From Acidimicrobiia bacterium (GTDB lineage Bacteria > Actinomycetota > Acidimicrobiia > Acidimicrobiales > MedAcidi-G1), in NCBI GenBank assembly GCA_012959995.1, contig DUCC01000020.1:13744-77743 (forward strand): a stretch of DNA of 64,000 nucleotides. The letters are read 5' to 3'. The position numbers were made by a program, and so were the translations under genes. Under the pieces are notes generated by a model that was given only the letters and a program-made list of their open reading frames with translations, was not told the origin of the DNA and searched no databases. This document shows positions 5,173-23,725 of this stretch, piece by piece (position 1 is the stretch's first letter; each line of letters begins with the position of its first letter).

Positions 5173-5559
5173 TGGTGGAGCTGGGGGGAATCGAACCCCC
5201 GTCCGTCGAAAGGTGACCGTACGCGTTACGACCGTTCCCGAGATTTTGGCTTGCGGCAGCCATCCCGCCGGGTCAGTCGGGCCCGAAAGCCCAGCCGCTA
5301 GGTCTTTCCCTAAGGTCAGCGGTCTTTCTCGCCGTCAGCGGTCTGTCCCTGCTGTCTCCAACGCTTCTGTTGCCGGGTTGCGCTGGACCGACCCCGCGTG
5401 CCGTCACCGGTCGCAGTGACTCTCTGCTACCTAACTAGTTAGGCGGCGAGAGCGAGATCGTCCGTAGTGGCGTCTCTTTTGGTGCCCTGTTTTAAGAGTC
5501 TGAGCAACTCTGGTCGCACGAAACGTCCACTGCAGCCGGCGTCGAAACCGATCAGCCCC
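5173..5559 (-). ncRNA. ssrA: tmRNA (transfer-messenger RNA)
   Basis: Minus strand starts GGGGCTGATCGGTTTCGAC and ends GGTTCGATTCCCCCCAGCTCCACCA. Tag frame 5486..5439 reads GTKRDATTDDLALAA-stop (resume codon approximate). Confidence 0.96.
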
Positions 5560-19623: not shown

Positions 19624-21390
19624 TTAAGTGGGTTGGCCTGAGCGTCGAAAACGTAATCGCTCGGGGTAAGGATAAAACTCTGGAAGATCTTTTTGCGCTA
19701 GTCGCTCTTGAAGCCCCGACCAAAATTCGGGGGTAAAAAGTTCACCGTGAACGGTTTGGAATCGTTCCCAAATTTCGGGAGCCACCCGAGAGGGAAAAGA
19801 CATGAAGGTGGGGAACTGTTCGGGAAAAACGTCACCCGGTTCTATAGCGAACCAGGGTTGAGAACGCATTTCATCTTCGTAACTTTGGCTTTGCGGCAAA
19901 GTACGAAAGCGGCAATCTTCTAGCAACTCGATTTCGTCGTAGTCGTAGAACACCACGTTGCCGTGGCGGGTTACGCCAAAGTTTTTTGTAAAAAGGTCGC
20001 CGGGCCAAATATTGGCCGCCGCCAAGTCTTTGATAGCCGCACCCCAGTCCAAGGCCGCTGCTTCGGCTCGGTCGGTAGACATTTCTTGAAGGTAAAGGTT
20101 TAGCGGGTAAACCTGACGCTCGGTGTAGAGATGCGAAACCACTACCTGGTCGCCCTCAAGTCGAACCGTTTGGCTGGCTTCGCTTAGTAGTTCTTCTAAA
20201 AGTTCGGGGTCAAAGCGATCGGCGTCAAAAGAAAGGTTCTCGAACTCTTGGGCATCGACCATTCGGCCTACCCGGTCGTGGTGGTAGACCAGTTGGTAGC
20301 AGTCTCGAATGGCCTGACGCGTAGTGTTTTTTGGTGGATCAAAATGGTCTTTGATGACTTTAAAAACCACGTTGAAAGAAACCAATGTAAACACTGTCAT
20401 GACCATGCCGGGTGTGCCACGAGCTCGGACAAACTTGTCGTTGGAGTTTTGTAAATTTCGGTAAAGCGCTCGGTACAAACTGGTTTTGCCGTGTTGGTTA
20501 AAACCTAAAGCGGTGTAAATCTCTGAAATAGATTTCAAAGGCAACATGGTTTTGACAAAACCGACCAATTCAGATGGTTTGGGCCATTCCACAAAAAAGT
20601 AAGACCGGGTGAAGCTGAAGAGACGACTGGCTTGCGATTCGGTCAGCAAAACGGTGTCGACCAGAAGGCCTTGGTCGCTTTGAACAATGGGAATAACGAT
20701 GGGGGTGACTCGATTCATGTAGCGCAAGCGGCCCACCAGGTAGGCGCCTTTGTTGCGGTAGAAAACTGGTTGCAACATGTCGATGCCGTCGAGGTCAAGG
20801 TTGTCCCAAGCGTCGAGCAAAAAGGCATCCAAGCGGGCGGCGACCCTTCGTGCATCGGCATCGAGATCTGCCCAGGGGGCGTCAAAGCCGTAGGAGTTCA
20901 GGATTGACCGCATCATGGCCGCCGAGTCACGGGTGCGCGTCCAAGTGGTGATGGGGCTGGCATCGCCTTTGCTGCGCGGCAGGGTGGAGGCCCCAAACCA
21001 CCGAAGCTCTACGTCGTTGTCAATACCGATGGTAGTAAACACTCGGCGAGTCACTGAGTTGAAAAAGGTTTCTGAAAGGTCCAAGTCGGAGCGTTGGGCG
21101 ATGCGGCGACGATAACGCAAACGGACGGCCCGCCATGTTCCGCGCTGGTCGGGCAAAGGCCGCAATGTTTTGGTTATAAGGCCCACTGTTGTTTGAACTT
21201 GAGCGGTGTGCAAGGCGAGCCTTTGGACGGCGTCTTGGTCTTGCTGGGCCCATTCCTGTTGTTGAAAGTGCTTGCCTGCTCGGTGGGTGATTTCTTGAAA
21301 CTCGGTTATGTAACGGACGTAGCCGTCGAAAACAGCATCGGAGATCCAGGTTTCGATGGCCTCGGGGTTATCGAGGAGCTGCTCATTCAT
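19624..21390 (-). CDS. aceK: Bifunctional isocitrate dehydrogenase kinase/phosphatase
   Basis: SETFFNSV, FYRNKGAYLVG, GMVM..F, VFKVIKD, HDRVGRMVDAQEF, WPGDL..KNFGVTRHGNVVFYDYDEI. Confidence 0.95.
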   Translation of the reverse strand: MNEQLLDNPEAIETWISDAVFDGYVRYITEFQEITHRAGKHFQQQEWAQQDQDAVQRLALHTAQVQTTVGLITKTLRPLPDQRGTWRAVRLRYRRRIAQRSDLDLSETFFNSVTRRVFTTIGIDNDVELRWFGASTLPRSKGDASPITTWTRTRDSAAMMRSILNSYGFDAPWADLDADARRVAARLDAFLLDAWDNLDLDGIDMLQPVFYRNKGAYLVGRLRYMNRVTPIVIPIVQSDQGLLVDTVLLTESQASRLFSFTRSYFFVEWPKPSELVGFVKTMLPLKSISEIYTALGFNQHGKTSLYRALYRNLQNSNDKFVRARGTPGMVMTVFTLVSFNVVFKVIKDHFDPPKNTTRQAIRDCYQLVYHHDRVGRMVDAQEFENLSFDADRFDPELLEELLSEASQTVRLEGDQVVVSHLYTERQVYPLNLYLQEMSTDRAEAAALDWGAAIKDLAAANIWPGDLFTKNFGVTRHGNVVFYDYDEIELLEDCRFRTLPQSQSYEDEMRSQPWFAIEPGDVFPEQFPTFMSFPSRVAPEIWERFQTVHGELFTPEFWSGLQERLAQKDLPEFYPYPERLRFRRSGQPT

Positions 21391-21447: not shown

Positions 21448-22620
21448 ATGAACACACTTAACGTACCTAAAACTCGGTTCCCTGGTTTGTCTAACGGTTG
21501 GGCTCGCTTTGATGGCCCGGCCGGCACCCAAATGGTTGATTCATCTATCGAAGCCATGGCCGATTGGCAACGGAGCGGCAACAACGCCAACACCCATGGG
21601 TCGTTTCCGGCGGCACAAGCTTGTGACGATTTGGTTGATGAGGTGAGCGCTACCATGGCCCAACTTTTAGGGGCTGATGCGGAGGGCATGATTTTTGGGC
21701 CCAGCACTACCTCAAACTTAATGTCGCTTACACGGGCTATTGGGGCCACGTTGCGCCCGGGCGATGAGATTATTTGCACTACTTTGGACCACGATGCCAA
21801 CGTGGCGCCGTGGTTGCTGGCCGCTGCGGATGCCGGGGCGGTGGTGCGTATGGCTGAATTTGATGGTGCCACTGGGCGGTTGGCGCCTCAAGCAGTGGGT
21901 GATTTGTTGACCGACCGCACTCGTTGGGTGGCGGTGACCGGCGGGTCTAACGCCATTGGCACCATGCCCGACATTGCGGCCATTACGGATTTGGCTCATG
22001 CCGCAGGGGCCTTGGTGGCCGTAGATGGTGTGCATAGGACCCCGCACCGGGTGACCGATGTAGGGGCCATTGGTTGTGATGCTTACGCCACTTCGCCTTA
22101 TAAGTGGTATGGCCCGCATGCTGGGGTGTTATGGCTAAGCCCAGAATTACGTGATGTGTTGCCGGCTTACAAGGTGCGCCCGGCTCCTGAGACTGGTGGC
22201 GGGCGTTGGCAGCACGGCACCCCTTCGTACGAAACGCTGGCCGGCATTAATGCAGCAGCCCAGTTTTTGTTGACTACCGGCATGGACAATATTGCTGCGC
22301 ATGAAAACCAGGTTTTCGCTCGATTGGTGGGTGGTTTATACGACCTGCCGGGGGTGCGGGTTTTGGGTTCCACCGGCCCTGATGATCTCGCGGAGCGGGC
22401 GCCTACTTTGATGTTGATGGTGGAAGGCCAAGCACCACTTTCGGTCGCTGAGCATTTAGCGAGGGCCCAGGTGGCGGTATGGGACGGACACAACTATGCG
22501 GTGGGTGCGATGGAACCCTTGGGCTTGCACCACGAAGAGGGTGCGGTGCGTGCCGGGGTTACCGCTTACATCACCGATCAAGATGTTGACCGGCTTTTGT
22601 CTGCGGTAGCAAGCCTTTAA
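21448..22620 (+). CDS. Cysteine desulfurase-like class V PLP enzyme lacking the SufS catalytic Cys
   Basis: FDGPAGTQ, LDHDANVAPW, VDGVH, SPYKWYGPH (PLP Lys), GTP. DGHNYA stands where SufS has AGHHCA. Start at ATG 21448. Confidence 0.85.
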   Translation: MNTLNVPKTRFPGLSNGWARFDGPAGTQMVDSSIEAMADWQRSGNNANTHGSFPAAQACDDLVDEVSATMAQLLGADAEGMIFGPSTTSNLMSLTRAIGATLRPGDEIICTTLDHDANVAPWLLAAADAGAVVRMAEFDGATGRLAPQAVGDLLTDRTRWVAVTGGSNAIGTMPDIAAITDLAHAAGALVAVDGVHRTPHRVTDVGAIGCDAYATSPYKWYGPHAGVLWLSPELRDVLPAYKVRPAPETGGGRWQHGTPSYETLAGINAAAQFLLTTGMDNIAAHENQVFARLVGGLYDLPGVRVLGSTGPDDLAERAPTLMLMVEGQAPLSVAEHLARAQVAVWDGHNYAVGAMEPLGLHHEEGAVRAGVTAYITDQDVDRLLSAVASL

Positions 22621-22696
22621 CCAAAACCCCGTTGGAGCGAGGGTCATTATCGGGCGGGCAAAGTAGTTTAGGGTCTTAAGGGACAGGAGGTGAGCA

Positions 22697-23725
22697 ATGA
22701 CAAGACGACTAACCCAATACAGTCACGGCGCTGGTTGAGGCTGCAAGCTTGCTCCTGGTGAGCTGGCGCACGTGGTGCGTCAATTAACCCCGATAGACAA
22801 CCCGAACCTTTTAGTGGGTGCGGCCACTGGTGATGATGCTGCGGTGTGGCGTCTTGATGACGAACGCTCCCTGGTGGTTACTGCAGATTTCATTACCCCG
22901 GTGGTCGATGAAGCGCGCCTTTGGGGCCAAGTAGCGGCCGCTAATGCGGTGTCTGATGTTTACGCCATGGGTGGCCGTCCATTGTTAGCTTTGAACCTGG
23001 TGTGCTGGAACACCGAAGAACTTTCTAACGATTTGTTGGCTGAAGTTTTGTTGGGTGCTCAAGACATTGCGCAACAGGCCGGCTTTGTTATTGCTGGCGG
23101 ACACACCGTTGATGACCCGGAACCGAAGTTTGGTTTAGCCGTGGTGGGGGAGGCACACCCGGATCACCTGTTAACCAATGCTGGTTTTAAAGTTGGGCAA
23201 AAATTGATTTTGAGCAAACCGTTGGGTATCGGAGTTATCACAACGGCCATCAAAGCCGGTACGGCGCCCCCTGAGGTGGTGGATGCTGCCATGGCTTCCA
23301 TGGTGCGTTTGAATGCGGATGCTGCCACGGTGGCTTTGGCGGCCGGTGCCACCGGGGCCACTGATATTACGGGGTTTGGTTTGTTGGGTCATTTAGGACG
23401 GGCGGTCCAGGAGTCGCAGGTTTCGGCCGAAATCGAAGTGGCCGCTGTGCCCATGTTGGGCGGTACTCGAGCGCTGGCCGAAGCGGGCACCATGCCCGGG
23501 GGGAGCCGCCGTAATTTGGCTTGGGTAGAAGAACGCCTGGACCGGGGCGGTTTTTCTGACCTTGAGGTGCTTTTGCTGGCCGATGCGCAGACTTCTGGCG
23601 GGCTGCTCTTTGGGGTTGAAGATGCTGCGGTTTCCGAGACCATGAGTGATTTGGAAGAATCGGGTCATCAGGCGGCGGTTATCGGAACGGTTGTTGAAGG
23701 CCTCGGCCAGATTGCTTTGCGCTAG
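22697..23725 (+). CDS. selD: Selenide, water dikinase (selenophosphate synthetase), selenocysteine-containing
   Basis: AGGAGG RBS at 22685-22690, then ATG 22697 reads MTRRLTQYSHGAG-TGA(22736-22738)-GCKLAPGEL in frame with the track ORF. DDAAV, DFITP, NAVSDVYAMGG, GGHT, DITGFGLLGH, DAQTSGGLL. Confidence 0.94.
22747..22767 (+). promoter_or_regulatory. Candidate bacterial SECIS hairpin
   Basis: GCU-U-GCUC-[CUGGU]-GAGC-U-GGC. The upper stem starts 12 nt after the UGA and has a G-containing apical loop. Folded by eye. Confidence 0.65.

Follow-up and report, generated by a model that had tools for sequence, protein, structure and literature searches.

A probable selenocysteine-type selD with an in-frame UGA at the catalytic codon in an uncultured marine Acidimicrobiales genome

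Gene callers truncate selD in an uncultured marine Acidimicrobiales lineage, dropping the SelD active site at a catalytic UGA that is very probably decoded as selenocysteine (Sec). The window that we analyzed, a 64-kb stretch of DNA from a metagenome-assembled genome (MAG) of 2.03 Mb (37 contigs, 96.7% complete), contains at positions 22697 to 23725 (+) what is very probably a functional selD for a Sec-type selenophosphate synthetase, in which we infer Sec insertion by standard bacterial recoding and an active enzyme. The frame comprises 342 codons plus a stop (TAG, 23723 to 23725) and is open if the TGA at 22736 to 22738 is decoded; with TGA read as Sec (U), the 342-residue product has the N terminus MTRRLTQYSHGAG-U-GCKLAPGELAHVV... 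An initial annotation of this DNA had proposed that SelD is a selenoprotein missed by the open reading frame (ORF) caller and that it starts at ATG 22697 behind a strong ribosome-binding site. Both proposals held up. The Shine-Dalgarno sequence AGGAGG occupies 22685 to 22690 (+), with a 6-nt spacer to the ATG (AGGAGG-tgagca-ATG ACA AGA CGA CTA ACC CAA TAC AGT CAC GGC GCT GGT TGA GGC TGC AAG), and the read-through frame matches SelD from end to end.

Profile and structural comparisons establish the identity of the encoded protein. The read-through product scores 367.7 bits against the selD model TIGR00476 (cutoff, 125) and 348.3 bits against NF002098 (cutoff, 299), residues 3 to 334 being covered in the SelD profile matches. 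Residues 4 to 338 align with residues 7 to 340 of Escherichia coli SelD (PDB 3U0O; 335 residues, 262 bits, E = 5e-77). This alignment places the single in-frame UGA, residue U14, on the catalytic Cys17 of the E. coli enzyme and K17 on Lys20, and G-C-K follows directly after U14. The motif SHGAG-UGA-GCK was therefore correctly assigned to the catalytic site in the initial annotation, and comparison with Cys-type SelD, as had been suggested, confirmed that the TGA corresponds to the catalytic Cys.

The sole ORF listed for this gene under translation table 11 begins at GTG 22772 and runs to 23725 (+; 317 amino acids). Were this the true start, the gene would encode an N-terminally truncated SelD-like protein, and the 25 codons preceding the GTG would belong to an untranslated leader or form a separate short ORF. 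Table-11 ORF finding yields this form, and nearly all public gene calls of relatives are likewise 316 to 317 amino acids long, but that uniformity is expected if every gene caller stops at the UGA. Translation from the GTG would omit the Sec/Cys and Lys of the catalytic loop, a loss that the initial annotation had foreseen. Inspection of the sequence upstream of GTG 22772 revealed no Shine-Dalgarno-like motif, the GTG itself falls within the loop of a predicted hairpin (see below), and the upstream codons are conserved as amino acids that match the SelD N terminus. A hexamer coding score for the 13 codons 5' of the UGA (−3.1) is an uninformative measure. We consider a start at GTG 22772 very unlikely and treat the 317-amino-acid ORF as an artifact. 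Among the best 120 database homologues, almost all are 316 to 317 amino acids long, cover only 92% of the query, and are devoid of the active site, and this uniform length indicates that the UGA truncation has spread through public gene catalogues.

The UGA codon is conserved among relatives. Of about 43 full-length selD genes in a six-frame search of 60 relatives, 40 have TGA at the identical codon; a stop is missing at this position from only 3 high-scoring full-length relatives. All full-length selD genes of the same genus and family contain exactly one TGA within the match, several other families of Acidimicrobiales also have TGA at that codon, and TGA-bearing genes occur at protein identities as low as 51%. 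Tara and "marine metagenome" records supplied homologues at 76% identity. In a wider comparison of 80 loci, SHGAG-*-[GA]CK was present in 46 distinct genes from Actinomycetota, Gemmatimonadota, and Dormiibacterota and SHGAG-C-GCK in 54 others, among them genes of Pseudonocardia, Enterobacterales, and Bacteroidota, so that the 54 Cys-type and 46 Sec-type homologues have the loop SHGAG-[C/U]-[GA]-C-K in common. The 13 residues before the TGA are also conserved at the protein level (RRLTQ[FY]SHGAG).

Alternatively, the TGA could have arisen through faulty sequencing or assembly, or through a recent nonsense mutation, in a selD that is really Cys-type or a pseudogene. The source genome is indeed a MAG in 37 contigs. 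However, the same TGA occurs in 40 independently assembled relatives and in other phyla, the peptide 5' of it is conserved, the RNA structure predicted downstream is conserved with covariation and appears specific to TGA-bearing genes, and the Sec machinery is complete. Because both the TGA and the upstream peptide are conserved across relatives, sequencing error and pseudogene status may for practical purposes be excluded. We regard an error or nonsense mutation as extremely improbable, an explanation that conservation appears effectively to refute.

The genome encodes the machinery that a Sec-type SelD would serve. The initial annotation had anticipated SelA, SelB, and tRNA-Sec, and all three are located on contig C14 of this 96.7%-complete genome: tRNA-Sec(UCA) at C14:61366-61461 (detected by ARAGORN; Rfam RF01852, 63.4 bits, gathering score 47), selA at C14:74033-75331 (395 bits, cutoff 267.9; PF03841, 329 bits), and selB at C14:75331-77061 (272.6 bits, cutoff 242.25). 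The selA and selB genes are adjacent with an ATGA overlap. SelB contains GTP_EFTU and Beta-barrel_SelB domains and a C-terminal SelB-wing_3 domain (residues 519 to 564), the domain that binds the SECIS element in known SelB proteins. No match to selU (TIGR03167) was found in the genome, in agreement with published surveys of Actinobacteria (PMC5322559), and in the absence of selU we assign selD to the Sec trait.

Decoding of the UGA as Trp, Cys, or Gly, through near-cognate read-through or lineage-wide reassignment, would also keep the frame open. There is a precedent in the phylum, since a recent report describes UGA-to-Trp reassignment in another Actinomycetota family (PMC13462651). In this genome, however, TGA is an ordinary stop that ends 347 of 1,048 long open frames, a third of the total, and on this count we rejected global UGA reassignment. 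Among the tRNAs, the canonical tRNA-Sec alone has a UCA anticodon. Moreover, the codon occupies the catalytic Cys/Sec position, at which Cys-type homologues have Cys and not Trp. We find decoding as anything other than Sec scarcely credible.

Immediately downstream of the UGA, the mRNA is predicted to fold into two adjacent hairpins, presumed to constitute the SECIS element. In the minimum free energy (MFE) structure, hairpin 1 (H1; 22746 to 22764, +) has an 8-bp stem, AGCUUGCU/GGUGAGCU, closed by the loop CCU, and hairpin 2 (H2; 22765 to 22781, +) has a 7-bp stem, GGCGCAC/GUGCGUC, with the apical loop GUG, which is the GTG at 22772 that was miscalled as a start. A hairpin resembling a SECIS had been noted 12 nt downstream of the UGA; hairpin structure is present, although that distance was imprecise and there are two hairpins rather than one, starting 7 and 26 nt 3' of the TGA. 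The 40 nt from 22744 to 22783 fold into exactly H1 plus H2 (−18.1 kcal/mol; z = −2.44; 3 of 200 shuffles did as well). Folded singly, the 65-nt piece from 22736 to 22800 was indistinguishable from shuffles (z = −0.13), and single-sequence energy is a weak test. The case for these putative hairpins is instead carried by comparative counts.

In an ungapped alignment of 37 distinct Sec-type genes, 92.8% of the cells of the two-hairpin structure are paired (92.2% for H1 and 93.4% for H2), and all 8 H1 pairs form in the window sequence. Changes on both sides, i.e., compensatory changes, occur in seven pairs in total, 4 of them among the 8 pairs of H1. Examples are the exchange of CAC...GUG for CAG...CUG at the top of H2 and of GCC/GGC for GGC/GCC in H1. 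Covariation scored 0.221 versus 0.128 for shuffles, with none of 500 shuffles reaching the former value. When the 3' partners were slid by 1 to 3 columns as a control, only 29 to 42% of cells paired. Part of this covariation consists of amino acid changes (His/Val to or from Gln/Leu) and could in principle have a protein-level cause.

We also compared 23 Cys-type genes with 46 Sec-type genes of matched GC content (0.717 and 0.713, respectively). Cys-type genes formed on average 5.0 of the 8 H1 pairs and 3.0 of the 7 H2 pairs, versus 7.5 and 6.6 in Sec-type genes, and the mean MFE was −15.0 kcal/mol in the former versus −21.8 kcal/mol in the latter. By these counts, the predicted hairpins do not form in Cys-type genes of matched GC content from other Actinomycetota and are specific to TGA-bearing genes. 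The H2 loop reads GUN in all 46 Sec-type genes. In the other candidate selenoprotein genes of the genome (described below), a single hairpin is predicted, with GU in the loop in most, though not all, cases [GGUC(U), GUG, CGUGA, GUGAG] and the loop about 21 to 31 nt from the UGA. The H2 loop lies 33 nt 3' of the UGA, at the far end of the UGA-to-loop range usually quoted for bacterial SECIS elements. Because the GUN loop is invariant and GU loops recur among the other Sec candidates, we take H2 to be the likelier SelB ligand, with H1 more probably a conserved helper or spacer.

An Rfam scan of positions 22600 to 22900 at E ≤ 10 returned no SECIS family and one chance snoRNA match. Bacterial SECIS elements are, in our judgment, poorly covered by Rfam, as is likewise stated in a preprint on Actinomarina (10.64898/2026.04.03.716425). 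Five Sec-type selD loci from Dormiibacterota and Gemmatimonadota (L035, L036, L042, L044, and L087) have almost the same nucleotides and two-hairpin fold as 22746 to 22781; the sequence that they share after the UGA includes AAGCUCG..CGAGCU and GGCGCAG-GUC-CUGCGCC. A tandem two-hairpin element common to Sec-type selD of three phyla hints at an old, or horizontally spread, 5' module or cassette of this gene.

These observations suggest the following model. The ribosome would start at ATG 22697 and, on reaching the UGA at 22736 to 22738, would encounter SelB, loaded with GTP and Sec-tRNA(Sec) and brought there by an mRNA element directly downstream and inside the coding sequence. The recruiting element would be the two adjacent hairpins at 22746 to 22781, the second presenting its GUN apical loop 33 nt 3' of the UGA. 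Sec would thereby be inserted at the position of catalytic Cys17 of E. coli SelD, ahead of Gly-Cys-Lys. The resulting SelD would make selenophosphate for SelA and so sustain both its own production and the making of at least 13 other predicted selenoproteins of the genome.

That other selenoproteins lie hidden in this genome had been suspected in the initial annotation, and at least 13 further genes with an in-frame TGA were identified, none of them inside the window. We scanned all same-frame ORF pairs split by a single TGA and checked the candidates against Pfam and NCBIfam; in each of the 13 genes retained, the TGA either falls within a domain or stands in for the redox Cys of the family. 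Most of the "class 1" same-frame pairs were rejected as ordinary neighboring genes, with Pfam domains that end or begin at the TGA. The Pfam check covered all but the 10 lowest-scoring two-sided candidates. A strict filter, under which the frame had to be the best of the six both before and after the TGA, kept 9 of 14 candidates and added none that was convincing, and on this basis the inventory is a lower bound.

At least 12 of the candidates belong to selenoprotein families already known, and they include genes for formate dehydrogenase FdhA (NRT-U-HAPS; TIGR01591, 650 bits; C12:74514-76457), an AhpC/TSA-redoxin (SSW-U-GC; C36:29014-30054), a BCP-type peroxiredoxin (TPG-U-T; C10:24915-25394), a UGSC family member (NF041046; C16:12977-13558), a ResA/TlpA-like thioredoxin (T-U-PVC; C28:3613-4164), and an AhpD/CMD peroxidase-related protein (CHY-U; C22:5369-5941). 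A DUF3179 protein (Y-U-GVC; C10:107661-108899) has its TGA conserved in relatives as well. Two copies each were found of PrdB/GrdB-like (V-U-P[LV]C; C10:119548-120735 and C36:11774-12673) and ArsC-like (C22:21209-21553 and C22:18683-19066) genes. A SelW/Rdx gene (CVP-U) lies at C16:21099-21377 (+) and ends with a TGA, beyond which a rubrerythrin gene continues in frame (about C16:21380-21890, +); a second Sec codon was rejected here, since Pfam shows two separate domains belonging to two genes. The last candidate is an unclassified 481-amino-acid protein (KPG-U-GSLSV; C16:11586-13031, +; locus L121) with an N-terminal CPAC thioredoxin-like part, for which searches of Pfam, NCBIfam, and the PDB found no relative. 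Among relatives, 16 genomes have TGA at this codon and 12 encode Cys, the pattern expected of a classical Sec/Cys pair, and the protein possibly represents an undescribed selenoprotein family.

With selD included, the genome has at least 14 predicted selenoprotein genes in 2.03 Mb, or about 7 per Mb. The term "selenoprotein-rich" has been applied to organisms with six or more such genes, mainly anaerobic Deltaproteobacteria, Clostridia, and Synergistetes (PMC5029168). The Acidimicrobiales family from which the window derives may be an unrecognized selenoprotein-rich lineage of presumably aerobic marine Actinomycetota, although we would stop just short of calling this probable. By our inventory, public catalogues carry truncated or split versions of selD and of no fewer than 13 further redox genes from this abundant, uncultured marine lineage, and metabolic reconstructions and protein family statistics therefore underreport the selenium dependence of such organisms. 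That a streamlined 2-Mb genome has retained the complete Sec apparatus, with predicted use in formate dehydrogenase and in thiol-peroxidase, thioredoxin-fold, ArsC-like, and AhpD-like enzymes, suggests that selenium matters as a micronutrient to pelagic Actinomycetota.

Directly upstream of selD, at 21448 to 22620 (+), lies a gene for a cysteine-desulfurase-like pyridoxal phosphate enzyme (TIGR01976, 375 bits), which has DGHNYA where SufS enzymes have the catalytic GHHCA. A TIGR01976 gene is directly 5' of selD in the loci of 26 relatives, and it is a possible selenium supply or delivery, or Sec-lyase-like, partner of selD. Elsewhere in the window are a tmRNA gene (5173 to 5559, −; tag peptide ATTDDLALAA, ARAGORN) and, at 19624 to 21390 (−), a gene for the bifunctional isocitrate dehydrogenase kinase/phosphatase AceK (NF002804, 665 bits), an enzyme best known from Proteobacteria.

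Sec-type SelD (SPS2) has been known since the 1990s, with hosts that include Haemophilus influenzae, Clostridia, Deltaproteobacteria, and Methanococcus. Like those proteins, the one described here belongs to TIGR00476, has its predicted Sec, with G-C-K after it, at the corresponding position of the N-terminal loop, is encoded with a putative SECIS element inside the coding sequence just 3' of the UGA, and would need the very pathway that it supplies. It differs in lineage, a marine Acidimicrobiales family, and in nothing of kind. The Cys-type E. coli SelD (3U0O) has the identical catalytic loop, SHGAG-x-GCK, with Cys17 in place of the predicted Sec. The SECIS elements of E. coli fdhF and fdnG are read by SelB via its C-terminal winged helix. 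The element proposed here resembles them as an in-ORF hairpin 3' of the UGA with a G-U-containing apical loop; unlike them, it has no sequence similarity, comprises two stacked short hairpins, and places the GU loop 33 nt from the UGA. Tandem short hairpins are predicted in Sec-type selD of Actinomycetota, Gemmatimonadota, and Dormiibacterota, versus the single long hairpin of E. coli fdhF.

The suggestion in the initial annotation that selenoproteins are little described for this lineage proved only partly true, given that Sec-type SelD is widespread and that a Sec-form selD had already been reported in Actinomarinales. Among the selenoprotein families of prokaryotes, Sec-type SelD ranks second in breadth of distribution (PMC13188914; PMC1794560); UGSC and DUF3179 are likewise counted as selenoprotein families in a 2026 review (PMC13188914). 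Table 4 of PMC1794560, on families lost in sister organisms, gives SelD as a selenoprotein in Rubrobacter xylanophilus and Symbiobacterium thermophilum, and Sec-type SelD was therefore already on record in organisms then classed as Actinobacteria. Closest to the present case is Actinomarina (Actinomarinales, a sister order within Acidimicrobiia), for which a 2026 preprint describes selA, selB, selC, and a Sec-form selD, no YbbB, and selenoprotein genes missed by gene callers (10.64898/2026.04.03.716425). Those genomes have about 5 predicted selenoproteins per 1.1 Mb, compared with at least 14 in 2.03 Mb here, most of which are assignable to known redox families. The mechanism that we propose is the textbook one, and the modest novelty is a selenoprotein-rich 2-Mb marine Acidimicrobiales genome.
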